Shown piece after piece: positions 1 to 62,906 of a stretch of DNA of 64,000 nt. The stretch's first letter is position 1, and each line of letters begins with the position of its first letter. The stretch lies in NCBI GenBank assembly GCA_018831265.1, contig JAHJCO010000052.1, positions 22,597 through 86,596 of the forward strand, written 5' to 3'. The notes under the pieces were generated by a model. The model was not told the DNA's origin and did no database searches. It worked only from the letters and a program-made list of their open reading frames with translations. The translations under genes were made by a program, and so were the position numbers. This DNA is from Actinomycetota bacterium. Lineage in GTDB: Bacteria > Actinomycetota > Geothermincolia > Fen-727 > Anoxymicrobiaceae.

Positions 1-1383
1 GCCATAGGGGCCAAGCCCTACGTTCCCGGGGAGGGTAACCGCTGGAGCTACGACGGCGCCTCGGACGTCTTCACCTCTCTGGAGGTGGAACGGCTGCTGA
101 GCTCGGCGGGGCCCACGGGTGGAGAGCTTCTCAGGCGCAGCAACGGGCAGGTGCCCGAGCAGGTCGCCTTCGTCCAGTGCGTAGGCTCCCGAGACCCTGA
201 CGAGAACCCGTGGTGCTCGCGGATCTGCTGCCTCAACACCATCAAGCAGGCCTGCCAGGTCAAAGCCAGGTACCCCGAGGTGAAGGTCTCCGTGTACCAC
301 GGCGACATACGGCTGTACAAGAAGGAGCACGAGGACTTCTACAGGCTCGCCCGCGACCAGGGCATCGTGTTCATGCGCTCGCACGTCGAGGAGGTGGCAC
401 CGAGGGGCGATCGCCTCGAGGTGCGGGCGATCGACGAGCTGCTGGACGGCCCGACCGCCCAGGAGGTGGGGATGGTCGTCCTGGCCTGCGGGCTCACCCG
501 CACCGACGACGCGCAAAAGCTCCAGGACATGCTCAAGGTTCCGAGCAGCGCGGACGGCTTCCTGCTGGAGGCCCACCCCAAGCTGCGGCCGCTGGAGACC
601 GCCATCGACGGGGTGATGCTGGCGGGAACCTGCCAGTTCCCGAAGGACATCGGCGACTGCATGCTGCAGGCGAGCGGGGCCGCCGCCAAGTGCATGGGGA
701 TGCTTTCCAAGGACAGCATCGAGCTGGACGGGATAATCTCTTCAATAGAACAGGACCTGTGTAACGGGTGCATGGTATGCGTCAAGAAGTGCCCGTTCGG
801 CGCGGTCACCACCGACGAGGTGGAGGTCGAGGGCAAGATGAAGAAACGCGCCCGCGTCATCGAGGCCTCCTGCAAGGGGTGCGGGGTATGCGTGGCGCGC
901 TGCAAGCAGGGCGCTATCCAGGCGCACGGCTTCACCGACGAGCAGATCTTCGCGCAGATAGACGCGGCGCTGGAGGAGGACCCGGGGGGCAGGATCCTCG
1001 CGCTCGTCTGTCACTGGTGAACTTACGGCGGAGCTGACCAGGCGGGGGTCAGCAGGTTCCAGTACCCGGCGAGCGCCAGGCTCATCCGGGTCATGTGCAC
1101 GGGACGTATAAGCCAGGAGATGGTCCTGCACGCGTTCGAGAGGGGCGCCGGCCTGGTGCTGATCGGCGGATGCCATCCCCCAGGCGACTGCCACTACATA
1201 AACGGCAACATCCAGTGCGAGGAGATGATCGCCAGGCTGAAGAAGAAGGCCCTCCCCGAGATGGGTGTCGACCCCGAGAGGCTGCGCCTGGAGTGGGTCT
1301 CATCGGCCGAGGGAACGGTCTTCCAGAGGATAATGAAAGAGATGGACGGGCAGCTCGAGGCACTGAAGGCGGCGAGACAATGA
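1..1383 (+). CDS. hdrA: HdrA-like heterodisulfide reductase subunit A (C-terminal part, 5'-partial) fused through an in-frame UGA (probable selenocysteine, nt 1018-1020) to an MvhD-like domain
   Basis: Frame 1 is open from nt 1. The HdrA motif FVQCVGSRD...NPWCSRICC and two C-x2-C-x2-C-x3-CP ferredoxin motifs are present. The ORF ends ...LALVCHW at TGA, and the same frame continues TYGGADQAGVSRFQYP...RVMCTG (ORF 1093-1383), which is the MvhD consensus CNWC-S-YGGADLAGVSR. The TGA therefore sits exactly where the second Cys of the MvhD motif is expected. A perfect 7-bp hairpin GCTGACC-aggcggg-GGTCAGC lies 13 nt downstream (1033-1053), the position of a bacterial SECIS. Gene callers will split this into two ORFs. 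Confidence 0.7.
1033..1053 (+). other. SECIS-like stem-loop immediately downstream of in-frame UGA 1018-1020
   Basis: GCTGACC / GGTCAGC is a perfect inverted repeat with a 7-nt loop, 13 nt 3' of the TGA, within the coding sequence. Confidence 0.5.
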
Positions 1384-3005
1384 GACCTGTGGTGTTTGTC
1401 TGCACGACTCCGGAGGAGCGCAGGGACGAGCTCCGCTCCCTGGCCGGGATCCTTGAGCGCAGGGGTGTCGAGGTACACGTGAGCAAGGACTTCTGCCACC
1501 CCAAGGGGCAGCGGTTGATCCGCGAGAACGTGGGCGCGGACAAAGAAGTGGTCCTGGTGTGCAAGCGGAAGCTCACCCGGGACGTCTTCGAGCACAACTT
1601 CCCTCCCAGGATGGACTACGTCTCCCACGCGATGGAGGGCGACCCGGACGAGCTCGCGGCAAGGATCCGCTCCGAGTCCGCGCCCGGCGAGCCGGCCGGG
1701 GACGGGGAGCAGCCCATGCTTCAGAAGGTCATGGTGATCGGCGGCGGGGTGGCGGGCGTGTACGCCGCGCTCGACGTGGCCGAGCAGGGATTCCAGGTGA
1801 CGCTGGTCGAGAGCGACCCCTCGATCGGGGGGATAATGGCCGCGCTGGACAAGACCTTCCCGACCATGGACTGCTCGATATGAATCCTGGGCCCGAAGCT
1901 GGTGGAGTCAGCTAAGCACAGGAACATAGAACTGGTCACCAACGCCCAGGTCACCTCGGTGGAGGGCGAGCCCGGCAACTTCCGCGTAGGGCTCCTGCAT
2001 CAACCGTGGTACGTGGATACCGACCGGTGTACCGGGTGCGGAGCCTGCATCGACGTATGCCCGGTGTCCGTACCCCACGAGTGGGAGATGGACCTGAAAC
2101 CCCGCAAGGCCATATACGCGCTGTTCCCGCAGGCGGCGCCCCTCAAGTACGTGATAGACAGGGAGCGGTGCATCGAGTGCGGCTTGTGCATGCAGGCCTG
2201 CGGGCTGGACGCAATAGACCTGTCGCAGGAGCCGGGCGAGAGCGTCGTTGAAACGGGCGCGATCGTGGTGGCGACCGGAGCCGGTGTCTTCGACCCGTCC
2301 GCGATCCCCGAGTACGGGTATCCCGAGCACGAGAACGTCGTGACCAACATGGAGTTCGAGCGGATCTGCAACGCGTCGGGGCCGACCGAGGGCGAGCTGG
2401 TGAGACCGGACGGCAAGGCTATCCACAGCGTGGTGTTCGTCCAGTGCGTGGGCTCTCGCGACCTGGAATACAACGTGTGGTGCTCCTTCTACTGCTGCAT
2501 GGCCTCCGTCAAGGGCGGGCGCCTGGTGATGGAGCACGCGCCCGGCGCGGACGTGACCGTCTTCTTCAACGACCTGCGGGCGTGCGGCAAGGGGTTCGAG
2601 GAGCTGTACAGACGCTCGATCGACGAGGGGATGCGGTTCATCCGCTCCATGCCCTCGATCCGGTACGACCACGAGACCAACGACCCCATAGTCATCTACG
2701 AGGATCCCGAGGTCGGCGGCACGGTCGAGAAGAGGGTGGACCTGGTGGTGCTCGCCTGCGGGATGCAGGGCTCGGAGGGGACCAGGAGCATACGCAGGAT
2801 ACTGGGGCTGGAGCGAGACACCTACGGCTTCCTGAGCGAGGAGCACCCCGTGGACGGGCTCGCCGAGACCGGGCGCCCGGGGATATACCTGGCGGGGACG
2901 TGCCAGGGGCCCAAGGACATCCCGGATTCGGCGACCCAGGGGAGCGCGGCGGCGGCGAAGGTGGGGATACTCCTCTCGAGGGGTGAGCGATGGCTGCCCA
3001 GATGA
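1380..3005 (+). CDS. hdrA: HdrA-like FAD/Fe-S flavoprotein with in-frame UGA (probable selenocysteine, nt 1881-1883); lacks the C-terminal ferredoxin and MvhD part
   Basis: The ATG at 1380 overlaps the upstream stop (ATGA). GxGxxG FAD motif VIGGGVAGVYAALDVAEQG is present. ORF 1380-1883 ends ...KTFPTMDCSI-TGA, and the same frame continues ILGPKLVESAKHRNIELV (ORF 1902-3005). This reconstitutes the conserved HdrA stretch FPT-DCS-(C/U)-IL-PKLVE. Downstream motifs: CTGCGACIDVCP, VVFVQCVGSRD, AGTCQGPKDIPDS. A nested stem-loop (tcctg...cagga enclosing agctg-gtggagt-cagct) lies at 1885-1926. Confidence 0.7.
1885..1926 (+). other. SECIS-like nested stem-loop downstream of in-frame UGA 1881-1883
   Basis: Inner stem AGCTG/CAGCT (1897-1913) and outer stem TCCTG/CAGGA. 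This is a weaker structure than the hairpin at 1033. Confidence 0.35.
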
Positions 3006-5857: not shown

Positions 5858-8056
5858 GTGAAGAGGTCGCTCGTCTCGCTGTCGATCGCAACCCTGCTCC
5901 TGTTCTCTACCGTTCCCCTGCTCCCTCAGGCCGCCGTGGCGGCGGACCTGCAGGGCTGGGTGCAACAGGTGTCGGGCGTGACCGAGAACCTGGTGGACGT
6001 ACAGGCGCTCGACGCCGATACGGCCTGGGCGGTCGGCTGGAGCGACACCATCCTGAAGACCACCAACGGGGGGGCGGACTGGAACCCCCAGGTGTCCGGG
6101 ACGACGAGCAAGGACCTGCAGGATATCTCCGCGGTGAACGGCAACACGGCCTGGGCGGTCGGTCACGGCGGGACGATCATCGTGACCGTCAACGGTGGAA
6201 CAACCTGGACACCGCCCCTGACGGCTCCTCCGATCGCCACCACCAACCTGGCCGGAGTGCACGCCTTCAGCGCGCTCTCGGTATGGGCGGTCGGCGGGTC
6301 CGGCACGGTGATAAGGACCAACAACGGGGGGCTGACCTGGGACGACCAGGCCACTCCCACCACGCGGGACCTGTTCGCGATATCGGCGGCGGACACGCTC
6401 AACGCCTGGGCTGTGGGAAACGAAGGAGCGCTCATCCACACCACCAACGGCGGCGCCACCTGGGTCGCACAGACCGCCACCTCGCAGAAGCTCCGGGGCG
6501 TCCACGCCCTCAGCCCCACTGTGGCATGGATCTGCGGGTTCAACGGCGAGATCTACAAGACGTATGACGCCGGAGCCACCTGGAACCGTCAGCCGACGCC
6601 GACCGACAACATACTCTATGACATCTGGGCCGTGGACAACGACGTGGCCTGGTCCGTGGGCTACGACGACTTCGTCCTCGACGAGGGGATAACCCTGAAG
6701 ACGACCGCGGACGGGGCCGACTGGCACTTCCAGTACGGCTCGACGCAGAACCTGCTCGGGGTGAGCGCGGTGAACTCGCAGATCGCCTGGGCGGTCGGCA
6801 TGAACGGCGAGATACTGAAGACGACCAACGGGGGCGAGTGGTACAGGACCTGGTATCTCGCCGAGGGAGCGACCCTGGGCGGCTTCGAGACCTGGGTGCT
6901 GGTGCAAAACCCGGGCACGAACCCGGCGGACGTCAACATCACCTACATGACGGACCAGGGCGCGGTACAGGGCCCTGTGTTCCAGCTCGCGCCGGAGAGC
7001 CGCACGACCGTGAACGTCGCGGAAACGGTACAGACCTTCGACGTGTCCACCTACGTATCGAGCAATGCCCCGGTGGTGGCGGAGCGCGCCATGTACTGGT
7101 TCAACCGCAAGGCCGGCCACGAGTCCATTGGAACGGTGGCTCCGGCCACGACCTGGTACCTGGCGGAGGGAGCCACCCAGGGAGGCTTCGAGACCTGGGT
7201 GCTCGTGCAGAACCCGGGTGCGGCCACCGCTAATGTGAACCTCACCTACATGACCGAGAATGGGGCGGTGCCCGGACCCCCGCTGCAGATACCGGCTCAG
7301 AGCCGGCAGTCGGTGCCGGTGAACGCGACCGTGACCACCTACAAGGTCTCGACGCTCGTGTCGAGCGACCAGCCGGTCATCGCCGAGCGGGCGATGTACT
7401 GGAACAACAGGTTCGGCGGCCACGACTCCATAGGCGTGAACGGGCCGGACAACGACTGGTACCTGGCCGAGGGGGCCACCCTGGGAGGATTCGAGACCTG
7501 GGTGCTTGTGCAGAACCCGGGGGCTGCGGCCACCAACGTAACCTTGAACTTCATGACGGAGAACGGTCCCGTGACCGGCCCGACCTTCTCGCTTGGGGCC
7601 ATGAGCAGGGAGTCCATCGACATCTCGCAGTGGGTCCAGACCTTCAAGGTCTCCACTCGCGTGACGAGTACACCCGGTCCTGTCATCGCCGAGAGGGCGA
7701 TGTACTGGAACGGCCGTATCGAGGGGCACGACTCGATCGGTGTCACCATGCCCTCGGACACCTGGTACCTGGCCGAGGGGGCCACGCTGGGGGGCTTCGA
7801 GACCTGGATCCTGGTACAGAACCCCGGTCCCATCGCGGTCGACGTCGACCTCACCTACATGACGGACCAGGGTGAGGTGACAGGGCCGCATTTCTCGCTC
7901 GAGGCGAACAGCAGGGAATCCATCGACGTCGGGGCCGACCTGCAGACCTACAACGTCTCGACCAGGGTCACAGCGAGCGCGCCGGTGATAGCCGAGCGGG
8001 CGATGTACTGGAACAACCGCATCGGCGGCCACGACTCGATCGGCCTGGGGCTCTAG
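5858..8056 (+). CDS. secreted protein: signal peptide + BNR/Ycf48-like beta-propeller repeats (TAWAVG..GTIxKTTNGGxTW, about 7 blades) + four copies of the ~105-aa WYLAEG...AERAMYW module
   Basis: Signal peptide MKRSLVSLSIATLLLFSTVPLLPQAAVAA. Modules start at WYRTWYLAEGATLGG, TWYLAEGATQGG, DWYLAEGATLGG and TWYLAEGATLGG. Each ends AERAMYWxNRxGGHDSIG. Confidence 0.8.
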   Translation: MKRSLVSLSIATLLLFSTVPLLPQAAVAADLQGWVQQVSGVTENLVDVQALDADTAWAVGWSDTILKTTNGGADWNPQVSGTTSKDLQDISAVNGNTAWAVGHGGTIIVTVNGGTTWTPPLTAPPIATTNLAGVHAFSALSVWAVGGSGTVIRTNNGGLTWDDQATPTTRDLFAISAADTLNAWAVGNEGALIHTTNGGATWVAQTATSQKLRGVHALSPTVAWICGFNGEIYKTYDAGATWNRQPTPTDNILYDIWAVDNDVAWSVGYDDFVLDEGITLKTTADGADWHFQYGSTQNLLGVSAVNSQIAWAVGMNGEILKTTNGGEWYRTWYLAEGATLGGFETWVLVQNPGTNPADVNITYMTDQGAVQGPVFQLAPESRTTVNVAETVQTFDVSTYVSSNAPVVAERAMYWFNRKAGHESIGTVAPATTWYLAEGATQGGFETWVLVQNPGAATANVNLTYMTENGAVPGPPLQIPAQSRQSVPVNATVTTYKVSTLVSSDQPVIAERAMYWNNRFGGHDSIGVNGPDNDWYLAEGATLGGFETWVLVQNPGAAATNVTLNFMTENGPVTGPTFSLGAMSRESIDISQWVQTFKVSTRVTSTPGPVIAERAMYWNGRIEGHDSIGVTMPSDTWYLAEGATLGGFETWILVQNPGPIAVDVDLTYMTDQGEVTGPHFSLEANSRESIDVGADLQTYNVSTRVTASAPVIAERAMYWNNRIGGHDSIGLGL

Positions 8057-10429: not shown

Positions 10430-12064
10430 CTACCGGGCCCGGCCGGTCCCGCCGCGATCGCCGGCCAGCTCCATCCGGCCACTCGCGACCTCGGCCTGCG
10501 CGGGCAGCTCGAGACGCTCGCGGTCCATCTGCTCCTGCTTGCGGTGCGCCTTCTCGGCCTTGGACGCCTGCCGCTCGGCCTTGTAGCGGTGTTTGAGCTC
10601 TGAGATGTAGTAGCGGTTCATACTCTTCCACCTGGTGATTGTGTGGTGCGCGTAGATGCTTATCGCCATGTCCTTCCAGCGGAACGACATCCCCAGCTTC
10701 CAGCACTGGAAGACGGAGTAGAACCTTCGCATCGCCTTCAGGCCTATCTCCTTCTGGAGCTTGAACGGTGACATCTTGGCGGGCTCATAGACCACGTGGT
10801 GCCCGCTGAACTTGGACCAGTCGTCCACGAAGATGCGCCCCTCGCTGCACAGCTCGTCGTAGGTCTCGGTCCCCGGAAGCGGGGTCAGCACCAGGAACTG
10901 TACGGTATCTATCCCCGACTTGCGCGCGAAGCGGACCGTGTCCCTTATGGTCTGCTTGTCGTCCTCGTCCGAGCCGAGCACGAACATGCCGTGCACCCTG
11001 ATCTTGTACTGGTGCAGGACCTCGACCGCGCGCCTGATGTCATCCACGGTCTGTGACTTGCGGAACGCCTCCAGGGTCGCCGGGTTGATCGACTCGACGC
11101 CCAGGAAGAGGTTCTTGCAGTTGGTGTCGCGCATCAGCTCCATGAGCTCGAGGTCCTCGACCACCTCGACCCGCGCCTGGGCCATCCATCGCTGGGTCAG
11201 CCCCTTCTCCTTCATCTTGCGGAGGAGCTCCTTGGTGTGCGACGGCGAGGCGGTGAAGTTGTCGTCGTAGAAGAAGACCGTGCGGTTGGGCTGCCTCTCG
11301 CAGAGCACCTCCAGCTCCGCTATCACGTCATCGGTGTCGCGGAACCGGTACCTGCGCCCGAACATGCTTGTCACCGAGCAGAACTTGCAGTCGTACGGGC
11401 AGCCGCGCGAGGTCTGTAGTGGGATGACCTTGAATCTCTCGAATCCCTCGATGAGGGTGAGGTCCGGCCACGGCAGCGCCGTGAGGTCCTTTACCCTCTC
11501 GCGGTCGGGGTTGTGCCGGAACCCGTCGCCGTCGTGGTAGGAGAGGCCCTCGATGTCCGAGAGCTCGCCCTCACCGGCCGAGAGTTGCTCTATCAGCTCG
11601 ACGAACGTCTCTTCACCCTCCCCGCGGACTACGAAATCGGCCCCCGCTGCGAGAGCCTCGTCCGCGAGGAACGACACGTGCGGACCACCCAGGACCACCG
11701 GGATATCACTCGAGGCCTTGATGCGCTCGATCAGGTCGTAGGCGACCGGCGCCGTCGGAGTTACGGTCGATATACCGACCAGGTCGGCCGTCGCCACCTC
11801 GCCCCAGTCGATCTTCGCCACCTCCTGGACGTAGATCTTGACCTCGATGCCCTTATCAACGAGAACAGCTCCCAGCAGGGGCAGCCCCAGTCTCGGGAGC
11901 TTGAACTTCGAGAAGACGTGGAACCCCGGGGCCCTGGGTTCGATAAGGACGACCTTGCGGATTCCGTCATACCCTGGCTGTGCATGCAGGCTGCACAAGT
12001 CCCGCGTATCGTGGCGCGGCCCGATATGCCCGCCTGATCGACCTGGCTCTTCAGAGGTATTCAT
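10430..12064 (-). CDS. B12-binding-domain radical SAM protein
   Basis: N-terminal cobalamin-binding-like domain (VVLIEPRAP...VVLGGPH) followed by a radical SAM core with the CPYDCKFC (CxxxCxxC) motif. The start overlaps the vapC stop by a few codons. Confidence 0.75.
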   Translation of the reverse strand: MNTSEEPGRSGGHIGPRHDTRDLCSLHAQPGYDGIRKVVLIEPRAPGFHVFSKFKLPRLGLPLLGAVLVDKGIEVKIYVQEVAKIDWGEVATADLVGISTVTPTAPVAYDLIERIKASSDIPVVLGGPHVSFLADEALAAGADFVVRGEGEETFVELIEQLSAGEGELSDIEGLSYHDGDGFRHNPDRERVKDLTALPWPDLTLIEGFERFKVIPLQTSRGCPYDCKFCSVTSMFGRRYRFRDTDDVIAELEVLCERQPNRTVFFYDDNFTASPSHTKELLRKMKEKGLTQRWMAQARVEVVEDLELMELMRDTNCKNLFLGVESINPATLEAFRKSQTVDDIRRAVEVLHQYKIRVHGMFVLGSDEDDKQTIRDTVRFARKSGIDTVQFLVLTPLPGTETYDELCSEGRIFVDDWSKFSGHHVVYEPAKMSPFKLQKEIGLKAMRRFYSVFQCWKLGMSFRWKDMAISIYAHHTITRWKSMNRYYISELKHRYKAERQASKAEKAHRKQEQMDRERLELPAQAEVASGRMELAGDRGGTGRAR

Positions 12065-12503
12065 CCAGCACCATCACCTTCATCCCATTGAAACCGGTCA
12101 GCTCGGGGTCGTCAGTCACGAACGCGCTGGCGCCTGCCTCCGCAGCACTCGCCAGCAGGATGCTGGATGCCATCTCCAGCTTGCCCATCGAGCGAATCCC
12201 GGCGGCGCGGGCGGCCACTGCCGGATCCATCGCCACCAGCTCGAGGTTCGGCATCTCGTGGAACAGCACCCGGTACAGGTCGGCGAGGCTCTCCAGCCCC
12301 AGCTCCAGGGGCCTGGCCATCACCTCCGCCAGGGTCACCGTGGAGACGGTGCCCCTCACGTGCCCGTCCTGGACCTGCCCCAGCACCACCGAGGTCAGCT
12401 CGGAGAGCTCATCGCCCCCGAAGTGGTGGATGAAGACGCCGGTGTCCAGCCCCACCACCTTGTGGTCGCCCAGGTCCTTCTTGAGTCTCTTCACTTTGTC
12501 CAC
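12051..12503 (-). CDS. vapC: PIN-domain ribonuclease toxin (VapC-like)
   Basis: 150 aa with a PIN acidic-residue pattern (VVGLDTGVFI.., ..TDDPEL). Overlaps the upstream antitoxin gene by about 4 codons. Confidence 0.65.
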   Translation of the reverse strand: MDKVKRLKKDLGDHKVVGLDTGVFIHHFGGDELSELTSVVLGQVQDGHVRGTVSTVTLAEVMARPLELGLESLADLYRVLFHEMPNLELVAMDPAVAARAAGIRSMGKLEMASSILLASAAEAGASAFVTDDPELTGFNGMKVMVLDEYL

Positions 12504-15524: not shown

Positions 15525-16157
15525 TCAAGCGCAGAAGCCTTCGAAGATGCGGACCGCCTCCACCGCATCGCGGCCCAGCGCGTCGATGCCATACCTGTCG
15601 GCGAGCTCCTGGGTGGTGCATGCGCCACCGATGGCTATCTTGACCTTTTCGCGCAGCCCCGCCGATTCCAGCGCCTTCACCACGTCGCCGATGGAGTCAA
15701 CCATGGAGGTGAGCAGCACTGAGAGCGCGACCGCGTCGGCGTCGTTGGACCGCACGGCCTCGACTATCCTGTCCTCGTGCACGTCCACGCCCAGGTCGAC
15801 CACGTCGAACCCGGAGGTGGAGAGCATGGTGCATACCAGGTTCTTGCCTATATCGTGGATGTCGCCCTTGACCGTGCAGGCTACGACCTTTCCCTTCTTC
15901 TCCAGCGCCTCACCGACCAGCAGCGGCTCGAGGATCGCGACGCCCTCCTTCATCCCCTCACCCGCCAGGACCAGGTCCGCCAGGTAGTACTCTCCCTGCT
16001 CGAACAGCTCGCCCACCTTCGCCATCCCGGAGCACATTGCCCCCAGTACGTCCTTCGGAGCCTGGCCGGCGTCCAGCGCCTCCCTGACCAGCGGGGCTAT
16101 GTTGTCCAGGTCCAGATCCGAGACCGCCGCCTGCACCTTTTCCAGTTGCTCTGCCAC
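15525..16157 (-). CDS. corrinoid (cobalamin-binding) protein of methyltransferase systems (MtaC/MtbC/MttC family)
   Basis: B12-binding DxHxxG motif GDIHDIGKN with a Rossmann-like C-terminal half, plus an N-terminal helical cap domain; 210 aa. Confidence 0.8.
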   Translation of the reverse strand: MAEQLEKVQAAVSDLDLDNIAPLVREALDAGQAPKDVLGAMCSGMAKVGELFEQGEYYLADLVLAGEGMKEGVAILEPLLVGEALEKKGKVVACTVKGDIHDIGKNLVCTMLSTSGFDVVDLGVDVHEDRIVEAVRSNDADAVALSVLLTSMVDSIGDVVKALESAGLREKVKIAIGGACTTQELADRYGIDALGRDAVEAVRIFEGFCA

Positions 16158-16220
16158 TTGAGCCTCCTTGCCCTGCCGCCGCCGCGCGGTCGGCTCACCG
16201 CCGGGAACGATTTTATCTCC

Positions 16221-17390
16221 TCAAACCTTCAAAGGGTAATGCCCGTACTCCTCGACCGCCTCCAGCATCCAGCGCAGCCGCTCCAGGCGCATCCCGGGAT
16301 GGCTGTTCGTGGGAGCGACGATGTAGCCGCCGCCCTTGCCGGCATCCGCTATGCGCTGCTTGATGTCGGCGAAGACCTCCTCCCTGGTGGCGTCCACCAG
16401 TATGTGGGTGACGTCGACATTGCCGAGCAGGCACATGCGGTCGCCCACCATCTCCTTGACCTTCGCCAGCTCTACCCCCGCCGTAGGCTCGAGCGCGTGC
16501 ACGCCGTCGAACCCGCAGTCGGCAAACCACCCTATCAGCGGGTAGACGTCGCCGTCCGTATGAACGACTATCTTCATGCCCAGCCTGTGCGCGGTCTCGG
16601 TGATGCGCCTGAACGAGTCGCCGAAGAACTCCTCCATCATCTTCGGGTTGAGCATGGGCCCGGAGCGGTACGCCTGGTCGTCGGAGTACACCGCGCCCGG
16701 CAACCCCGCGTCGGCCCACGCCTCGATCATCATGCAGTAGAGGTCCTCGTAGAACTTGATGTAGCGCCGCATGAACTCCTTCTCGCGCCGGATCATCACC
16801 GCGAAACGTTCGAAGCCGAACGGCTGCCAGCAGGTCTCGAAGAGCCCGAACAGGAAGCTGCCCAGGATGAAGATGTCATTGCCGAAGTCTTTCTGGATGT
16901 GCGAGAAGGCCCTGTTGGCCCGCTCGGGCAGCCGCAGTATGTCCTTCTTGTCCCACGCGTCCCAGTCATCGGGGCCCGACAGCAGCCCTCCCCTGTACAT
17001 CGGAGTCCCGATGTTGCCCTTGTGGTCCACTACGAGGTCGTAGTAGCGGCCGTAGATGTCGGTGGCGGTCTTCGAGTCCGGGAACCGCCAGATCGGAACG
17101 TGCATGGTCCAGACGGAGTCGTAGCCCATCCTGACCGAGGCGTCCACGCGGTCGTGGGAGAAGTGGTCCATCTCCCTGTCGATCAGGTGAAGCTTGTTGA
17201 CCAGAGGGCAGGCCAGGTCGAAGAGCCTGGAGGCGTACTTGTTGTCGACGAGGAACCCCAGCGGGACCGGCTTCTTGCCGAGTATCTCGTAGATGTTGGA
17301 GTACTCCTCCATCACATCCATGGTGGGTACGCGGTCCGGCTCGCGGAGCTCGAGGGCCGCCGTCACCCTCTCTATACTGGACATCGCCAT
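16221..17390 (-). CDS. uroporphyrinogen decarboxylase (URO-D) family methyltransferase (MtaA/CmuA-like, methylcorrinoid methyltransferase)
   Basis: 389 aa. URO-D/MT2 fold markers: ...VHTDGDVYPLIGWFADCGFDGVHALEP... Confidence 0.65.
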   Translation of the reverse strand: MAMSSIERVTAALELREPDRVPTMDVMEEYSNIYEILGKKPVPLGFLVDNKYASRLFDLACPLVNKLHLIDREMDHFSHDRVDASVRMGYDSVWTMHVPIWRFPDSKTATDIYGRYYDLVVDHKGNIGTPMYRGGLLSGPDDWDAWDKKDILRLPERANRAFSHIQKDFGNDIFILGSFLFGLFETCWQPFGFERFAVMIRREKEFMRRYIKFYEDLYCMMIEAWADAGLPGAVYSDDQAYRSGPMLNPKMMEEFFGDSFRRITETAHRLGMKIVVHTDGDVYPLIGWFADCGFDGVHALEPTAGVELAKVKEMVGDRMCLLGNVDVTHILVDATREEVFADIKQRIADAGKGGGYIVAPTNSHPGMRLERLRWMLEAVEEYGHYPLKV

Positions 17391-17425
17391 TGTCGCGTCC
17401 TTTCGTCGGTGCCGAGGTTACTATA

Positions 17426-18094
17426 TCAAGAAAGCTGCGTGGAGAAGTCCTCGAAGCGGATCTCCACTCCCGGCTCCACGACCACGAACTCGTCGGTCCA
17501 TTCGCCTGCCAGCAGCATCTCCAGCATCCGGTTCGAGCCGGGTATCTCCACGAACTGAAGTTCCAGGAACCCGGCCATGGCGCGCGCGAAGTCGCGGTAC
17601 TCGTCCATGTGGTAGTTGCCGGTGTCGATCAGCGCCACGGTGGTGTAGTTGACGAACAGCACGCGGGCCACCTTGAGGGCGCGCTCCGGCCCGTAGCGCT
17701 CGACCAGGCGTTCATACTCCGCGACCGTCCCCTCCTGGGCCTCCACCCAGCCCTTGGTCAGGTAGTAGGTGCCGGGCTCGGCGCGAAGCCTCTCCATGTG
17801 GGCGGCGCGGGACCCCAGGAATAGGGCGATGCAGTCGTCCACCTTCGGTATGACGAGCCTGTGGGTCGGTGAGGACAGGCTTACCACTGCGTTCGAGCAC
17901 AACCCGTATCCGAGCAGGATGTCGCACTCGCCGGGCACGGCCTCGACGGCCGCCTTCAGCTCCGACTTCAGCTTCTCGGGCTCCGCGTGCAGCCCGAACT
18001 CGAGCACGGTCAGGCGCTCCTCGGTCACCCCCAGGCGGCGCAGCTCCTCGGCCACGGTCGCGCAGGATATGACGTGGTAGTCATCGGTTCTCAT
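17426..18094 (-). CDS. DUF1638-domain protein (commonly encoded with corrinoid methyltransferase genes)
   Basis: Internal start MRTDDYHVISCATV.... Co-oriented and tightly spaced with the MtaA-like and corrinoid protein genes. Confidence 0.5.
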   Translation of the reverse strand: MRTDDYHVISCATVAEELRRLGVTEERLTVLEFGLHAEPEKLKSELKAAVEAVPGECDILLGYGLCSNAVVSLSSPTHRLVIPKVDDCIALFLGSRAAHMERLRAEPGTYYLTKGWVEAQEGTVAEYERLVERYGPERALKVARVLFVNYTTVALIDTGNYHMDEYRDFARAMAGFLELQFVEIPGSNRMLEMLLAGEWTDEFVVVEPGVEIRFEDFSTQLS

Positions 18095-18350
18095 CGCACC
18101 CGGCTCTCGCTGTCCGGGTAGCTCCGCTTCCCGGTCCATCGACGCTGCCTTTCACCTGGTCCCAGAAGGCTTCCCGTATGAATAACGCGATTTTAACCCG
18201 CGGCTAACGGCCGTTTCACCCGCGTGCCCGATTATCCTCCCAGGGACCGGGTAGATGGAACCGGTCTGGAATCGGGCCGGGTGGCGCGGCTTCATACTCC
18301 CCCACTCACTCCCCGCGCCGCCCGGCTTCCCCTCCACTTTGAGTACCCAT

Positions 18351-23100: not shown

Positions 23101-24261
23101 TTGATCAAGTACATTCTTCGTAACATGTGGCGCCGCAAGGCGCGGACCTTCCTGACAGTCTTCGGGATAGTCGTCGGCATCTTCGCCCTGACCGTGCTGG
23201 GGGGTCTATCGGCCCGCCTGACCCAGCAGGTCCAGGGAGCCCGCTCCTGGTTCACCAGTTCAATCTCCGTGGTGCCGTCGGGCTCGGGCCTGTTCGGCGG
23301 CGGGGAGAACCAGTTCTTCGACCTGAAGAAGGTGGAAGAGGTTAAGAACGTGCCGGGCGTCGAGAAGGCGTCGGCGGGGCTGGGGGTGACGCTCGCGGAA
23401 CAGGGCGGGGGGTTCTCCTTCGGCGCACCCGACCTGTTGATAGGGCTTGACCTCTCCGAGGGATCCGGACTGCTGGAGCAGCTCGCGATCGGCGAAGGCC
23501 GGCCCCTTCAGCCGGGCGACCGCGGCAAGGTGACGCTGGGCTCGGTGCTCGCCGAGAAGCGGGACGCACGGGTCGGAGACACCGTGAAGCTGCGGGGAGA
23601 GCCGTTCGAGGTGGTGGGCATCTACCGGCCCACCCTGTCCGCCCCCGACACCTTCGCCTTCGCCGCCTACGAGGACGTCCTGCCGGTCTTCCTGGAAGCG
23701 AACCCCTTCCTGCAGAAGAAGGCGATATCCAGCGTCGTATACGTGATATGGGAGCCGGGGGCGGACCCGGAGGCGGTCGCGGCCCGGATCAAGGACGAGG
23801 TCGAGGACGTCAACGTTATCTCACCCCGCAGGGCCGAGCAGCAGATATCGCAGTTCAGTCTCATCTTCAACGCGATCCTGCTGGGCATCGCGCTCATCGC
23901 CCTTCTGGTGGGCGGGCTCTCGGTGATAAACACCATGATCATGTCGGTGTCGGAACGCACGCGCGAGATAGGCCTGAAGCGGGCCATCGGCGCGGAGACG
24001 CGGACCATCCTGTCGGAGTACCTGCTGGAGTCGGCCACAATCGGGTTGCTGGGCGGCCTGGTAGGCATGCTCCTGGGGCTGGTCGTCATCTGGCTGCTGA
24101 ACAGCGCGACGGCCTCGCAGAACGTGTCCGTGTTCGCCATCACCGTGACGGTGGTCGTCGGCCCGGTGATTTTCGCCACAGTACTGGGGACGGTCGCGGG
24201 CATCTTTCCGGCACTGCGGGCGGCGCGCCTGCGGCCGGTCGAGTCCCTGAAGGAGGATTGA
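23101..24261 (+). CDS. ABC transporter permease, FtsX/MacB family
   Basis: TTG start 7 nt after AGGAG. MIKYILRNMWRRKARTFLTVFGIVVGI followed by a C-terminal FtsX 3-TM. Confidence 0.75.
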   Translation: MIKYILRNMWRRKARTFLTVFGIVVGIFALTVLGGLSARLTQQVQGARSWFTSSISVVPSGSGLFGGGENQFFDLKKVEEVKNVPGVEKASAGLGVTLAEQGGGFSFGAPDLLIGLDLSEGSGLLEQLAIGEGRPLQPGDRGKVTLGSVLAEKRDARVGDTVKLRGEPFEVVGIYRPTLSAPDTFAFAAYEDVLPVFLEANPFLQKKAISSVVYVIWEPGADPEAVAARIKDEVEDVNVISPRRAEQQISQFSLIFNAILLGIALIALLVGGLSVINTMIMSVSERTREIGLKRAIGAETRTILSEYLLESATIGLLGGLVGMLLGLVVIWLLNSATASQNVSVFAITVTVVVGPVIFATVLGTVAGIFPALRAARLRPVESLKED

Positions 24262-25909: not shown

Positions 25910-28306
25910 TCAGTCGTCGAAGCCGCCGATCGTGTCCGTGCCCGCGCCCCGGGAGTTCCAGTACATGGCACGCTCGCACATGATGCGCCCTCCCGCAGTC
26001 AGCGACTCCACCATCACCGCCGCCCGACCTCCTGGCAGGTGGTCGGCCATGTTGAAGGTGACACGCGAGTTCGCGGGGACCTCGGAGTCGAACTGCGGGC
26101 TGCCCAGCCCGTCCGGCGTCATGTAGGTCACCCTCACCGTGACAGGCACGTCGTTGGGATTCTGCACGAGCGTCCAGGTCTCGTGGCCGTTGGCCGTCTC
26201 GCCGTCGGGCAGGAAGAACTTCATGTGACGGTTTGCCATGCCGATCGAGTCGTGGCAGGCCTCCCCCGCCCCGGCGTCCCAGTACATGGCTCTCTCGGTG
26301 ATGATGCTCTGCGAGCCGTGGGCGTGGGTGGAGAAGTCGGGAACGTTCATGCTCGGTGACTCCTGGTTGACGTTGACGGTCCGCCTGGAGTTGGGGGGCA
26401 TCTGGAACGAGGTCTGAGTACTGTCCTGGGGCGTCATGAACGTCAGGGTGACGTCCGTGACCGTGTCGTGCGGGTTCTGCACCAGCACGTAGGTGGTGAA
26501 CCCCCAGCCGACCGAGCCCTCCGCGAGGTAGCAGTCGACCGCCGGGGTCGTGGTCCCGGTGGAGTCGTGACCCTCCCTCCTGCCGTTGCGGTACATCGCC
26601 CGCTCGGGGATGACCGGCACGCTGGAGGTGACCATGATGGACGCGTCGGCGCTCCCGATGTCATCGACCATGCCGAAGCTGCTCCGCGAGTTCGCCGGCA
26701 CCACGTGGTTCACCGGAACCGGCTCGCCGCCCTCGACCATGTAGGTCACCGTGCAGTATGCGTCCTGGGTGTTGGGGTTCTGGATGAGCAGCCAGGTCTC
26801 GAAACCCCACTTCGAGCTTCCCTCGGGCATGTACCAGGTCCGGGCCGGAGCCGTGACCCCCACCGAGCAGTGCCCCTCCGGCGAGAGCGCTCCCTGGCCG
26901 GTCCACATCATGCGGCGGTCCACCGCGATGGTCCGTCCCTCCTTACAGACGACCCTGGTGGAGAAGTCGGCCGTGCCGATGTCGTTCCTGGGGTTGATCA
27001 CGGTCTGGCTGTTCGCGGGGAGCCAGACGTCGGGCCTCTGGGTGGGCCCGGACGGCGTCATGTAGGTCACGGCGGCCGTGGACGCCTGGGCGCTCGGGTT
27101 CTGTATGGTCACGTAGGTCTCGAACCCCCAGTCGCTGGACCCCTCGGCCAGGTACCATGTCGAGAAGTACGCCTTGGTGACGGTCAGGGCTCCCACCCCG
27201 GTCGCGGACTCCCCGTCCGGGTTGCGCACGGTCACGTCCCAGGTCCCGAGCGCCGCCCCGGTCAGGTCCACGTAGCACACAAGCCCCTGCGTATAAGCGA
27301 CCGCCTCGCCGGTCGCCTCGATATCGCCCTGCCCGCTCCTCTCCAGGACCACCTGCGCGCCCTCGTCGAACCCCTGGCCGGCGATGTTCATGGACACCGA
27401 GCCGTTGTTCGGCGCGGTCGACGGCTGCACGTTGCTGACCGACATCTCCGGCTCGGGCTCGGGCTCGGGTTCCGGCTCCTCCTCGATGAACGCCGCGTAG
27501 GCGTCGTTCAGCAGGGGCACGAACTCGGCTGTCGCCTTGAGGTTGCCGGCCTGCGAGGGGTGGTCGTCACCGGTGGGGTAGGCCAGCGTGTTCCCACCGC
27601 CGTCGGTCTTGTGCTGCACCGCGCCGTTCCACCAGCGGTGGTGGTTACCGTTCGCGCTCCCCAGGTCGTTGGTGTCCGGGTCCCCGCCGTTGCTGGTCAG
27701 CACGTTGTAGAAGTCGAATACGAGCACGTTGCCCGTTTCGTAGGAGTCCAGCCAGTCGTTCACCAGCCACTGGTTGAAGGCGCGCGCGTTCGCCGCCCAG
27801 GTCGAATCGCTCAAGGGTGGGGCGGCGATGACCACGAACAGCCTGTCCGATTGCGTGGCGAAGTAATCCAGCAGGGCGATGTAGATACCCTTGGCGTTGG
27901 CCACCGTGTGATACTGAGACCCGCAGGCCTGGCTTCTCAGGGGATTCGAACCGATGGGTGGGACCGGGTCGGAGGGGTTTCCCCTAAGGCCTGAGTTCGG
28001 GAAGCACGACTTGAAGACGACCACCTCGTTCTCGCCGGTGGGATCCGGGTTGGAGGCCATCCGCGAGTAGGAGCAGTTCTGGCCGGACTGGTCGTAGAGC
28101 GCCGCGGTGTAGGTGTCCCGCGAGGGCCCCAGGAACCAGTCGTACCAGTGGCCGATGTCCGTGCGGTCCCCGATGGCATCCGGCCCCCACCCGTAGTTGG
28201 TATCGCTCACGTAGTAGTTGCCGTCCCGCAGGGCCAGCCCGAGGCCGCCGTTGCCATCGGCGAGCCAGTTCTGGCCGGTGGAGTGGTGGACGAAGACGAG
28301 CCTCAC
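25910..28306 (-). CDS. secreted modular protein: N-terminal about 300-aa putative hydrolase-like head, EPEPEPEPEPE linker, IPT/TIG-like Ig domain, and a 4-module WYLAEG...AERAMYW block ending GTDTIGGFDD
   Basis: Modules: STWYLAEGSSDWGFETYVTIQNP, RTWYMPEGSSKWGFETWLLIQNPN, VDCYLAEGSVGWGFTTYVLVQNPH, MKFFLPDGETANGHETWTLVQNPN. The true N-terminus probably extends to about 28411: the in-frame upstream peptide IRRAIAIAVAAGLLCLASPFVPAALAADP is a signal peptide with GGAGAAGGAGG 5 nt before an ATC codon and no canonical start. Confidence 0.75.
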   Translation of the reverse strand: MRLVFVHHSTGQNWLADGNGGLGLALRDGNYYVSDTNYGWGPDAIGDRTDIGHWYDWFLGPSRDTYTAALYDQSGQNCSYSRMASNPDPTGENEVVVFKSCFPNSGLRGNPSDPVPPIGSNPLRSQACGSQYHTVANAKGIYIALLDYFATQSDRLFVVIAAPPLSDSTWAANARAFNQWLVNDWLDSYETGNVLVFDFYNVLTSNGGDPDTNDLGSANGNHHRWWNGAVQHKTDGGGNTLAYPTGDDHPSQAGNLKATAEFVPLLNDAYAAFIEEEPEPEPEPEPEMSVSNVQPSTAPNNGSVSMNIAGQGFDEGAQVVLERSGQGDIEATGEAVAYTQGLVCYVDLTGAALGTWDVTVRNPDGESATGVGALTVTKAYFSTWYLAEGSSDWGFETYVTIQNPSAQASTAAVTYMTPSGPTQRPDVWLPANSQTVINPRNDIGTADFSTRVVCKEGRTIAVDRRMMWTGQGALSPEGHCSVGVTAPARTWYMPEGSSKWGFETWLLIQNPNTQDAYCTVTYMVEGGEPVPVNHVVPANSRSSFGMVDDIGSADASIMVTSSVPVIPERAMYRNGRREGHDSTGTTTPAVDCYLAEGSVGWGFTTYVLVQNPHDTVTDVTLTFMTPQDSTQTSFQMPPNSRRTVNVNQESPSMNVPDFSTHAHGSQSIITERAMYWDAGAGEACHDSIGMANRHMKFFLPDGETANGHETWTLVQNPNDVPVTVRVTYMTPDGLGSPQFDSEVPANSRVTFNMADHLPGGRAAVMVESLTAGGRIMCERAMYWNSRGAGTDTIGGFDD

Positions 28307-28505
28307 GGGATCGGCGGGCGCAACGGGGTCCGCTGCCAGCGCCGCAGGGACGAACGGGGAAGCCAGGCAGAGAAGCCCGGCCGCTACCGCGATGGCGATT
28401 GCTCTTCTGATGAGAACCTCCTTCTCCGACTCCTTTGCTGTTTATATCGGACTAACGCGTCGTTACTAAAGTGTTATAATCCGCGCACGGGAAGACAGGG
28501 GGACG

Positions 28506-40605: not shown

Positions 40606-40778
40606 GATGAGGGACCTTCCTTTCCTTCCGGTGTTTCACAGTATCCTAGTGCCCCACCGCGCGGGCGGTCAAACAGGGTTCGTGGCCTTCATCGTCAACC
40701 CGAGCACAGGATGGCACTCGCTTCAAACTGATATAATCAAACAGGCGTATGCAACTACTTGGAAGGCGGTGTTACGCT

Positions 40779-43700
40779 ATGCGTACTCACCTGAGGGCTC
40801 ACCATGCTACGTTTGCCGTGCTGGTTCTCTCAGCGCTTGTGCTCTGCTCGGCGATCGCCTTCGCGGGGACGCGCTGGGCCTCAAACGGGGTCGTGGTTTG
40901 CAACGTGGACAATCACCAGAACCTGCCGGAGGCGGTCTCGGACGGGACCGGCGGTGTTATCGTGGTATGGCAGGACACGCGCACGGCCGGTACCGACTAC
41001 AGCGTCTATGCGCAGCGGCTCAACTCGGCGGGGCAGCCCCAGTGGACCGCGGGCGGTCTACAGATCGCGGCGGCACAGGGGCAGGTTACCTTCGCGCAGT
41101 ATCCCTACCCAAAGATCGCGACCGACGACGCGGCCGGAGCTTACATAGTCTGGACAAACAAGTCGGGTGCCAACTGGGATATCTGCGCCAGGAGGGTCCT
41201 CGCCGACGGCTCGCTGCCATGGGCGACTGTCAACGTCTGTGGAGCCGCCGGCAACCAGAGGAACCCGGTGGTCTGCGCGGACGGCTCCGGCGGAGTCCTT
41301 GTCTCCTGGGAAGACCAGCGGGCCGGCGGGCCGTGGCGGGTCTATGCCCAGAGGTTGAACTCCAGCGGAGTAGCCCAGTGGACCGGCGATGGGGTGGCGC
41401 TGAGCGCGCTGGCCAGCGACCAGCAGGCGCCCTGCATCGCCGCCGACGGTGCGGGAGGGGCGGTGGTCGCCTGGCAGGACGACCAGGCGCCGCTGGTGCT
41501 GTTCAACATCTACGCGATGCACGTCGACCAGCTCGGCGCCAAAGACCCGTTGTTCGGGCCCAATGGCCTGCCCGTGGCCGCGTCGGCCCAACCGCAGGGA
41601 ACCCCCGTACTGGTCGACTCCGGCTCGCAGAGCTTCGTCACCGCCTTCACCCAGGACCCGGGCGGAGGAGTGACAGACATATACGCGCAGAAGTTCGACC
41701 TGACCGGCGCCTTCCCGTGGGGACTCTCCGGCGCTACGGTGTGCACCGCAGCGGGTATGCAATACGAGCAGCAGATAATCGGTGACGGCGCGGGCGGAAC
41801 CTACGTGGCCTGGCGCGACCAGCGTGGCGCGCCCGACTACATCTACGCTCAGCACCTGCAGTCCGGTGGAACTCCGTACTCGGGCTGGGATCCAGACGGC
41901 CTGCACATGGCAGGCATGGGCCTCGGCAACCAGCAATCCCCCAGGCTCACTTCCGACTCCCTGACCGGCGCCTACGTGACCTGGCACGACTACCGCGACG
42001 ACCCCGCCAACCCCGACATCTACGCACAGCGGGCCACTTCGGGTGGCACGCGCGTCTGGGGCACCACCGGCCTGGCCATATGTACCGCGACGGGTTGGCA
42101 GGGATTCCCGGTGATCGCGGGCGACGGCTCATACGGAGCGATGATCGCCTGGGAAGATGGGCGGAACGACACCCCCTCCGGGACGGGCTACGATATCTAC
42201 GCGCAGCGCACGAGCAACGATGCGCCGACAGTTACCGGGATAACCCCTGCCAAGGGACTCAACAACAGCAGTATTGACTGTACGGTGACCGGCACCAACT
42301 ACTACACACCCGGAACGCTCGCCAAGCTCAAGAGAGGCAATACCTATATCACCGGCACCAACAATACGGTTGTGAACAGCACGACTCTGACCAGCAGGTT
42401 CGACCTGGCCGGGAAAGCCTATGGAACGTACGACGTGCTCGTCTACAGCGGCGACGGGCAATCAGGCTCGAAGGCAGGATCGTTCACCGTCAAGTCCTCC
42501 GTACCCGTGATGGAGACGCTGCTTCCCCTGAACGCCACCCCGGGAGACACGGTGACGATTACCGGAGGCGGCTTCGGCGACAACCAGGGGGCCGGCAGCG
42601 CAGGTGGAGCCGCATCGTTCGTCTCATTCTCGGGTGTCAGTGCAACCGTGTACAGCGAATGGACGGATACCAGGATCAAGTGCGAGGTCCCGGTCGGGGC
42701 CGGCAGCGGGGACGTTTCCGTAACCACCTCGACTGGTACCTCCAACACCAGGACCATCACCGTGGTCTACCCCACCTGGTTCCTGGCCGAGGGCAGCACC
42801 TCGTGGGGATTCGATACATACATAGCCATCGAGAATCCAAATACCGTCGGGGTGGATGCGCAGGTGACGTACATGACCACCGGCGGCGAGGTCGACGGGG
42901 GCACCATCAACCTGCCCGCCGGCTCGCAGACCACGATCCATCCCAAGGACCTGTTGGGAGAGCAGGACTTCTCGACCAGGGTGGCCTCCCTGGACACCTC
43001 CAGGGATATCTGCGTCGACAGGACCATGACCTGGTACTCGGGGTACGGGAACGGCAACGCCTGGCACGGCTCGGTCGGGGTGACCGGTTCGGCTGCTACC
43101 TGGTACCTGCCCGAGGGCTCCTCCAACTGGGGATTCGAGACCTGGCTCCTGATCCAGAACCCCAACACCGTGGAGGCGAACTGCCAGGTGACCTACATGA
43201 TCGAGAACGATGTGCCGCAGACGGTCACCCACGTCGTCCCCGCGAACTCGCGCCGGACCTATAACATGGCCGACGACATAGGCTCGAAGGACGCCTCGAT
43301 AATGGTCCAGGCCGACGTGGGCGTCATACCCGAGCGGGCGATGTACCAGATGAGCACCGGGCAGTACGCCGTGCCGGACTCTCGCCGGGAGGGCCACGAC
43401 TCCATCGGGACCACGCTGCCCGACACCGACTACTACCTGGCCGAGGGGACGAGCGCCTGGGGCTTCACCACCTACGTACTCATACAGAACCCGAACGCGG
43501 TCGCGGCGAACGTTGACGTCACTTACATGACCGGCGCAGGCCCACAGCCTCAGGCGCAGTTCGAGATGCCGGCCAACTCGCGCAAGACCATCCGGGTGAA
43601 CGACGTCCCCGGGATGGGAAGCGTCGACTTCTCGACGCAGGTGCACGCCGACGCGCCGATCATCGCGGAGCGGGCGATGTACTGGCAGCCTGGAAGCGCC

Positions 43701-44084
43701 GACTCGAACCAGGCCATGCACGACTCCATCGGGATGAGCGCTCCGCACAAGGTCTTCTACCTGCCGGACGGTGAGACGTTCCTCACCGACGAGGGACCTT
43801 ACGACATCGAGACGTTCACGCTGGTACAGAATCCCAACGGCGTGGCCGTCGAGATCGAGATCAGCTACTTCCCCGAGGGAGGCGGGACCCCTGTCACCTG
43901 GAAAGACACCGTGCCCGCCAACTCCCGGATGACCTTCAACATGAGGGACCGGTTCCAGGCCAATGCCAGGGCGGCGATCAAGGTGGAGTGCCTTACAGCC
44001 GGCCGGAAGATAATGGTCGAGCGCTCGATGTACATGCAGGACAGATGGGGTGGTACCGACACGATCGGTGGATACAGCGACTAG
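40779..44084 (+). CDS. secreted modular protein: signal peptide + about ten 47-aa repeats (DIYAQR..G...W...G......Q..P.I..DG.GGA.V.W.D.R) + two IPT/TIG-like domains + 4-module WYLAEG...AERAMYW block ending GTDTIGGYSD
   Basis: Start MRTHLRAHHATFAVLVLSALVLCSAIAFAG. Modules: PTWFLAEGSTSWGFDTYIAIENPN, ATWYLPEGSSNWGFETWLLIQNPN, TDYYLAEGTSAWGFTTYVLIQNPN, KVFYLPDGETF...ETFTLVQNPN. Confidence 0.8.
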   Translation: MRTHLRAHHATFAVLVLSALVLCSAIAFAGTRWASNGVVVCNVDNHQNLPEAVSDGTGGVIVVWQDTRTAGTDYSVYAQRLNSAGQPQWTAGGLQIAAAQGQVTFAQYPYPKIATDDAAGAYIVWTNKSGANWDICARRVLADGSLPWATVNVCGAAGNQRNPVVCADGSGGVLVSWEDQRAGGPWRVYAQRLNSSGVAQWTGDGVALSALASDQQAPCIAADGAGGAVVAWQDDQAPLVLFNIYAMHVDQLGAKDPLFGPNGLPVAASAQPQGTPVLVDSGSQSFVTAFTQDPGGGVTDIYAQKFDLTGAFPWGLSGATVCTAAGMQYEQQIIGDGAGGTYVAWRDQRGAPDYIYAQHLQSGGTPYSGWDPDGLHMAGMGLGNQQSPRLTSDSLTGAYVTWHDYRDDPANPDIYAQRATSGGTRVWGTTGLAICTATGWQGFPVIAGDGSYGAMIAWEDGRNDTPSGTGYDIYAQRTSNDAPTVTGITPAKGLNNSSIDCTVTGTNYYTPGTLAKLKRGNTYITGTNNTVVNSTTLTSRFDLAGKAYGTYDVLVYSGDGQSGSKAGSFTVKSSVPVMETLLPLNATPGDTVTITGGGFGDNQGAGSAGGAASFVSFSGVSATVYSEWTDTRIKCEVPVGAGSGDVSVTTSTGTSNTRTITVVYPTWFLAEGSTSWGFDTYIAIENPNTVGVDAQVTYMTTGGEVDGGTINLPAGSQTTIHPKDLLGEQDFSTRVASLDTSRDICVDRTMTWYSGYGNGNAWHGSVGVTGSAATWYLPEGSSNWGFETWLLIQNPNTVEANCQVTYMIENDVPQTVTHVVPANSRRTYNMADDIGSKDASIMVQADVGVIPERAMYQMSTGQYAVPDSRREGHDSIGTTLPDTDYYLAEGTSAWGFTTYVLIQNPNAVAANVDVTYMTGAGPQPQAQFEMPANSRKTIRVNDVPGMGSVDFSTQVHADAPIIAERAMYWQPGSADSNQAMHDSIGMSAPHKVFYLPDGETFLTDEGPYDIETFTLVQNPNGVAVEIEISYFPEGGGTPVTWKDTVPANSRMTFNMRDRFQANARAAIKVECLTAGRKIMVERSMYMQDRWGGTDTIGGYSD

Positions 44085-52775: not shown

Positions 52776-52845
52776 AGTCCGACGCTAACCGGAAATGGTG
52801 TTTGCCACGCATTTTGTTACGGAAGTCGCAAAGGGGAGTTGCGAA

Positions 52846-62894: not shown

Positions 62895-62906
62895 AGGCTG
62901 TCCCTG

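Follow-up and report, generated by a model that had tools for sequence, protein, structure and literature searches.

The 64,000-nucleotide stretch of contig JAHJCO010000052.1 analyzed here (hereafter the window), which comes from a member of Candidatus Geothermincolia, a class of uncultured Actinomycetota, begins within an HdrA-type gene (HdrA1) whose product ends in an MvhD domain, followed by a second HdrA-like gene (HdrA2), a small ThiS/MoaD-like open reading frame (ORF), a tungsten-type aldehyde:ferredoxin oxidoreductase (AOR) gene and a gene for a ferredoxin-like subunit (Table 1). Bases 1-1383 are very probably the 3' portion of a single gene encoding an HdrA-MvhD fusion, a flavo-iron-sulfur protein of ~795 aa when whole, in which the in-frame TGA at 1018-1020 is predicted from sequence comparisons to be translated as selenocysteine (Sec). 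An initial annotation, made from the sequence alone, had proposed such a selenoprotein, and the coordinates it gave for the frame, the TGA and a downstream hairpin are all correct.

Table 1. Features at the start of the window (SECIS, selenocysteine insertion sequence)
Feature	Coordinates	Strand	Basis and remarks
C-terminal 339 codons of the HdrA part	1..1017	+	Translation, Pfam Fer4/FlpD; start cut by window edge
In-frame TGA, predicted to be read as Sec, motif CHWU (CxxU)	1018..1020	+	Alignment with Cys16 of 5odc_D; conservation
Rest of MvhD ([2Fe-2S] adaptor) domain, 120 codons plus TGA stop 1381-1383	1021..1383	+	PF02662, 5odc_D
SECIS-like hairpin	1033..1053	+	GCTGACC 1033-1039, loop AGGCGGG 1040-1046, GGTCAGC 1047-1053
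Second HdrA-like gene (HdrA2), 541 codons	1380..3005	+	ATG overlaps previous stop (ATGA)
Second SECIS-like hairpin	1897..1913	+	AGCTG / loop GTGGAGT / CAGCT; 13 nt between TGA and stem
Small ThiS/MoaD-like ORF, 95 aa	2990..3277	+	PF02597 E 1e-3, below cut-off, weak
Tungsten-type AOR, 610 aa	3462..5294	+	AFOR_N E 1e-70, AFOR_C E 1e-119
4Fe-4S ferredoxin-like subunit after AOR, 158 aa	5300..5776	+	Fer4_11, other Fer4 families; position conserved

Frame 1 is open from base 1 and reads ...LALVCHW-TGA-TYGGADQAGVSR... up to its terminal stop; the residues just ahead of the internal TGA are ...EEDPGGRILALVCHW (in a longer excerpt, ...DAALEEDPGGRILALVCHW), and the same frame continues past it as TYGGADQAGVSRFQYPASARLIRVMCTGR... 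(in a longer excerpt, TYGGADQAGVSRFQYPASARLIRVMCTGRISQ...). The part upstream of the TGA, which spans 665-690 aa in full-length relatives, holds the end of a thioredoxin-reductase-like domain and a C-terminal 2x[4Fe-4S] ferredoxin domain. It also contains the opening 9 residues of the MvhD domain, among them the first Cys of the CHW-U motif; this domain thus begins 9 residues ahead of the TGA (residue 340) and runs across it. Correspondingly, the FlpD/MvhD family PF02662 matches the read-through product at residues 332-455 over essentially the full profile (1-122 of 123; E 5.7e-43, 146 bits against a cut-off of 22.3). The domain also matches a solved MvhD chain, that of the Mvh-Hdr complex (5odc_D, at E 1.6e-39). 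In alignments to this and four other solved MvhD/VhuD chains, the TGA falls on the second Cys of CNWC (Cys16 of CCNWC in 5odc_D), with the further Cys motifs VMCTG, GGCH and GDCHY kept. The earlier proposals that the stop takes the place of the second Cys in the CxxC pair of MvhD, and that the MvhD motif lies in register with the TGA, are thus borne out by the solved structures. Among NCBIfam models the best match is that for fused HdrA-MvhD proteins (HdrA2, NF040770; profile 325-773 of 777), at 500.6 bits below its cut-off of 1100, for a 460-aa fragment cut by the window start.

The TGA was followed across relatives using DNA from four Actinomycetota metagenome-assembled genomes (MAGs), two of them labelled Candidatus Anoxymicrobiaceae, from eight contigs obtained via exact protein look-up and from 80 metagenome loci. 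The aligned codon is TGA in 31 orthologous loci of Geothermincolia (20 distinct sequences), within the motif CHW-U-TYG[GA]AD, and in 4 further loci from a second, unrelated lineage of lower G+C content, within the motif C[NI]W-U-GYAGAD, whereas it is TGT or TGC in 60 Cys-type homologous loci. Neither TAA nor TAG occurs at this codon in any locus, the stop being TGA in 35/35, and this alternation of TGA with TGT/TGC at a single codon exceeds chance. The loci of the second TGA lineage (L038 601, L039 679, L040 1315 and L071 165) show 47-54% identity. At the protein level, the ~30 nearest clusters (63-90% identity, 665-690 aa, many named 'heterodisulfide reductase subunit A') cover 74% of the query without PF02662 and all end in ...LALVCHW or ...LALTCHW, and after each such cluster ending at CHW an FlpD fragment of 97-112 aa is called. 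Remoter homologues (47-54% identity) are unbroken HdrA-MvhD fusions of 775-800 aa with Cys at the site, hosted by Thermodesulfobacteriota and Syntrophales. Both the fusion itself and its splitting by gene callers had been anticipated by the initial annotation.

This split, which gene callers give in every relative, could be taken at face value: many organisms have HdrA and MvhD as separate subunits (PMC2702500), and the TGA could be a true stop that leaves an HdrA ending in ...CHW and a shortened MvhD, initiated at ATG 1093, as two polypeptides. Such an arrangement is very unlikely, as the MvhD domain starts 9 residues ahead of the TGA, and a fragment starting at Met +25 would be devoid of both CxxC/U residues. 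The first in-frame ATG, GTG or TTG past the TGA is the ATG at 1093-1095, codon +25, and separate initiation therefore cannot account for the strong protein-level conservation of codons +1 to +24, which include TYGGAD-AGVSR and are among the best conserved of the protein. In line with this constraint, an alignment of 21 orthologues shows neither gaps nor additional stops over the 100 codons preceding the TGA and the 109 following it. The exclusive use of TGA in 35/35 loci, with TAA and TAG in none, and the unbroken Cys-type fusions likewise speak against two polypeptides.

Downstream of the TGA, the hairpin at 1033-1053 combines 7 perfect base pairs with a G-rich loop, and its stem begins at the 13th nucleotide past the TGA; it lies where bacterial SECIS elements sit, as previously suggested, and is conserved in relatives. 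The ~40 nt 3' of the TGA are almost unchanged in relatives of 73-75% protein identity, even at the third positions of the codons ACT, GGA and GCT, all of them unusual here (genome coding G+C content at third positions, ~0.9). Synonymous diversity over the 210-codon stretch of the 21 orthologous sequences reaches its minimum at codons -2 to +13, where it is 0.30 (median, 0.45). Three hairpin variants are found in the Geothermincolia: type A, which includes the window (GCYGACC-AGGCNGG-GGUCRGC), type B1, in which 5/7 pairs are retained, and type B2, in which switched Val and Ser codons (GUG UCR) yield a shifted 9-bp helix with a GGUG loop. Within type A, one compensatory change (n=1) pairs a synonymous GCU->GCC with AGC(Ser)->GGC(Gly), turning U-A into C-G.

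Across 18 distinct Sec-type sequences, 82.5% of the cells of the named stem are paired, against 9-46% when the partner strand is slid by 1-3 columns, and the covariation score of the stem was matched by 0/500 shuffles, relatedness being left uncorrected. RNAalifold applied to all 18 sequences returns a weak consensus of different structure (-1.27 kcal/mol), but a single consensus structure is not appropriate for a lineage with three hairpin variants. Sec-type sequences fold better than Cys-type ones (p = 4e-4, uncorrected for phylogeny), and the second TGA lineage carries at the same place an unrelated, stronger hairpin (GCCGGC...GCCGGC, -22 to -27 kcal/mol). The E. coli fdhF element and the bSECISearch criteria describe a stem-loop within the coding sequence about a dozen nucleotides past the UGA, with a G in the apical loop. 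The hairpin at 1033-1053 shares these traits with fdhF-type elements, but has no sequence similarity to them. A search of the whole window against Rfam at the gathering threshold gave no match; we know of no curated Rfam family for bacterial SECIS elements, so this result says little.

The adjacent HdrA2 gene has an in-frame TGA of its own, at 1881-1883 (motif FPTMDCSI-U-ILGPK), which was absent from the initial annotation. This TGA aligns with Cys197 of the solved HdrA 5odc_A (E 8e-135), and in Methanococcus maripaludis HdrA the same residue is Sec197, for which a Cys-Sec selenenylsulfide has been seen by cryo-EM (PMC13518236). It is present in 30/30 of the loci that carry the first TGA and cover the site. 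The hairpin that follows it has the consensus AAGCUG-GUGGARN-CAGCUAAG, whose stem and flanking AAG...AAG are invariant in 19/19 distinct sequences of the lineage, with variation at loop positions. The gene, as judged by these alignments, is a second predicted selenoprotein gene, with Sec at the Cys197 position, and the occurrence of a TGA at a known HdrA Sec position next door strengthens the case for the first. HdrA2 is otherwise reduced: it has no N-terminal cluster domain, C-terminal ferredoxin domain or MvhD, carries an unrelated 105-aa N-terminus, and matches NF040770 over profile 131-564 of 777 (519 against the cut-off of 1100).

Several side observations concern the two HdrA paralogues and their Sec positions. 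Their identity of 41% is reminiscent of BamE, which has a bifurcating half and an unequal, non-bifurcating one. In a full-length relative of the first gene (P0002, residues 195-210), the site matching DCSI-U reads MEHVSC, with His in place of the first Cys and Cys as the second. In one locus (L050), the MvhD site (~3357) is Cys (TGT) while the DCSxU site of HdrA2 is TGA; thus, the two Sec positions are not always coupled beyond the Geothermincolia lineage.

Several results weigh against Sec decoding at 1018-1020. The 64 kb window and ~0.25 Mb of relatives' flanks yielded neither selA, selB or selD nor a gene for tRNA-Sec: Pfam scans of ~45 window ORFs revealed no SelA, SelB or SelD domains, and ARAGORN detected no tRNA, and hence no tRNA-Sec, in the window or in 30 related loci. 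As for the hairpin, the 7-bp stem is present as first claimed, but its folding energy is no better than that of dinucleotide shuffles (z = -0.17 for the window; mean z = -0.74 for Sec-type sequences). In addition, the peptide GAD-AGVS partly dictates the stem, Cys-types keeping a mean of 3.9/7 pairs and Sec-types 5.9/7, and the register is not uniform within the Sec lineage, given the 5/7 pairs of one variant and the shifted helix of another. The hairpin is therefore supporting but not decisive evidence, as its energy is non-significant and the peptide enforces part of the complementarity. On the contig of one relative (L010 21419-21928), an in-frame TGA interrupts a gene for an AhpC/Prx-like, SelL-related protein, within the sequence GRGTW-U-PFCRRY; this is a UxxC signature typical of selenoproteins and makes the gene the lineage's third Sec candidate. 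The presence of several independent Sec-type sites in one lineage argues that this lineage decodes Sec, and the collected sequence evidence indicates that Geothermincolia use Sec in energy metabolism.

The inserted residue cannot be identified from sequence alone, and UGA could in principle be recoded to Trp, Gly or Cys through an altered code or near-cognate read-through. Such non-Sec recoding is nonetheless highly improbable. Many ordinary genes of the window end in TGA where full-length domain matches end (e.g., the AOR, which terminates 6 residues past its full-length AFOR_C match), showing TGA in its normal stop role. Moreover, a six-frame scan of the window yielded just three TGAs that have coding-like sequence before and after them (1018, 1881 and 24259), two of which are at Sec positions known from established selenoprotein families and followed by conserved hairpins. 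The third, at 24259-24261, was rejected as a Sec codon: here an FtsX permease gene simply adjoins an ABC ATPase gene, an ordinary gene junction. Finally, a nonsense mutation, pseudogene or assembly error of one sequence, for which nothing speaks beyond the location of the stop within a domain, has practically no chance of being correct and is already refuted by TGA conservation: 20 distinct sequences, drawn from independent metagenomes and MAGs and as low as 63% in protein identity, share this TGA, and all 20 keep the downstream frame intact.

Translation of the TGA as Sec would proceed by a mechanism that we infer from the established bacterial Sec pathway. In the mRNA, the hairpin, lying 3' of the UGA inside the coding sequence, would bind SelB-GTP-Sec-tRNA(Sec), and the SelB complex would deliver Sec at the UGA, competing there with release factor 2. 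In the product, the C-H-W-U motif would open the MvhD domain beside the [2Fe-2S] cluster site, where the Cys/Sec pair could form a thiol/selenol redox relay, by analogy with MvhD/VhuD and BamF. Such a relay may help electrons pass between the one-electron [2Fe-2S] cluster and the bifurcating flavin adenine dinucleotide (FAD) of HdrA. In methanogens, VhuD/MvhD transfers electrons from hydrogenase or formate dehydrogenase (Fdh) via its [2Fe-2S] cluster to the bifurcating HdrA FAD (PMC6019823), and a Cys near the [2Fe-2S] cluster (Sec19 in BamF) has been proposed to serve as a one-/two-electron switch (bioRxiv 10.64898/2026.04.10.717634). From the likeness to BamF, we infer that Sec in this protein may have a role in the one-/two-electron change similar to that of Sec19.

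The surrounding genes provide a context for this activity. As the window begins within HdrA1, the gene order further upstream is taken from relatives, in which it runs: ferredoxin, a stand-alone Cys-type MvhD paralogue, an Fe-S protein, the Fdh alpha subunit (TIGR01591, 880 bits), polyferredoxin, HdrA1-MvhD[Sec], HdrA2[Sec], ThiS-like, AOR and ferredoxin subunit, the ThiS-like gene of the window having its counterpart at the matching position and the genes that follow HdrA2 in the window keeping this order in all relatives. The stand-alone MvhD paralogue (~150 aa; L003 4782-5243, L010 5777-6223, L011 2026-2475 and L013 5793-6269) has Cys at both CxWC positions and was considered as a Cys back-up of the Sec domain, but at only 24-29% identity it is likelier a different adaptor. 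The nearest structure to the AOR of the window is Pyrococcus furiosus AOR (1aor, E 6e-121), matched over its full length, while the match to BamB (4z3w, E 7e-62) covers residues 5-424 only. A class II benzoyl-CoA reductase cluster was thereby ruled out, the enzyme being a classical AOR (1aor) and not a BamB orthologue.

The gene order suggests that Fdh and polyferredoxin, both HdrA genes, and the AOR with its ferredoxin could form one HdrA-based electron-bifurcating module. A more specific proposal is that HdrA1-MvhD and HdrA2 form a heterodimeric HdrA core, comparable to the fused BamE dimer, of an undescribed bifurcating complex that couples Fdh to a classical tungsten AOR in Geothermincolia, with the two Sec residues acting as thiol/selenol relays; furthermore, synthesis of the fusion could be made conditional on selenium supply by the UGA. 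Taken as a whole, this proposal is tentative and rather unlikely to be correct in all its parts.

The two genes resemble several known systems. MvhD/VhuD/FrhD (PF02662) and HdrA are listed CxxU selenoprotein families, both known from Methanococcales, Deltaproteobacteria and Clostridia; when sequenced bacterial genomes were surveyed in 2006, the two families came third and fourth in selenoprotein number (PMC13188914, PMC1794560, PMC2702500). With the VhuD/MvhD/FrhD selenoproteins, the first gene shares the domain, the CxxU at the domain N-terminus, and the motifs VMCTG, GGCH and GDCHY. However, those proteins are separate subunits from methanogen, deltaproteobacterial or clostridial hosts, and 2 Sec are listed for the family (PMC13188914), whereas in the actinobacterial class Geothermincolia the domain is fused to the HdrA C-terminus, with one predicted Sec and the UGA ~673 codons into a long gene. 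HdrA2 shares the TGA at the Cys197/Sec197 position and the DCSxU motif with Sec-HdrA (Sec197 in M. maripaludis; in bacteria, Syntrophobacter and Desulfobacterium), from which it differs by its missing N-terminal cluster, C-terminal ferredoxin and MvhD domains.

Methanosarcina HdrA2 (NF040770) has the same fused domain order and is the best NCBIfam match for both genes, but the scores are 500 and 519 against 1100, and the context is Fdh and AOR instead of HdrB2C2. Geobacter metallireducens BamE/BamF, likened here by description, similarly combines an HdrA-type module with an MvhD-type adaptor that bears Sec near its [2Fe-2S] cluster (Sec19 of BamF); these are linked to an AOR-family tungsten enzyme with a ferredoxin subunit, and two HdrA units act together (bioRxiv 10.64898/2026.04.10.717634). 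In contrast to that system, the AOR at this locus is classical, the HdrA units are encoded by separate genes, and one of these units carries MvhD as a fused domain; homologues of BamD or BamGHI were not seen.

Two further groups of genes stand out in the rest of the window. Five large proteins of ~560-1230 aa have a DUF5719 domain in common (5858-8056, +; 25910-28441, -; 40737-44084, +; 51105-52784, -; 59211-62906, -), several of them also with IPT/TIG or BNR repeats, and constitute an expanded family, whose members are probably surface or secreted proteins. On the minus strand, a B12-binding radical SAM protein (10430-12073) and a cluster of a corrinoid (B12-binding) protein, a URO-D-like methyltransferase and DUF1638 (15525-18151) together look like a corrinoid-dependent methyl-transfer system.

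The CxxU selenoprotein families MvhD/FrhD and HdrA are already known, and the present case reveals no new kind of element. What is new here is the host class, Candidatus Geothermincolia (Actinomycetota), the predicted Sec within the MvhD domain of an HdrA-MvhD fusion and the Fdh-HdrA-AOR context; a literature search found no paper mentioning Geothermincolia together with selenocysteine. Both predicted selenoproteins are systematically mis-annotated in public databases. Public records (NCBI P0028, Candidatus Solincola, and ~30 other clusters) end HdrA at ...CHW and leave a headless FlpD of 97-112 aa, and HdrA2 is split into pieces of 167 aa and ~369 aa.

Reading both TGAs as Sec would restore two complete redox proteins and extend the HdrA and MvhD selenoprotein families beyond their known range to Geothermincolia. 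The role of Cys/Sec pairs in HdrA-type bifurcation has been called unresolved in recent structural work (PMC13518236; bioRxiv 10.64898/2026.04.10.717634), and the proteins predicted at this locus would add natural Cys/Sec-pair variants for HdrA-type electron bifurcation.

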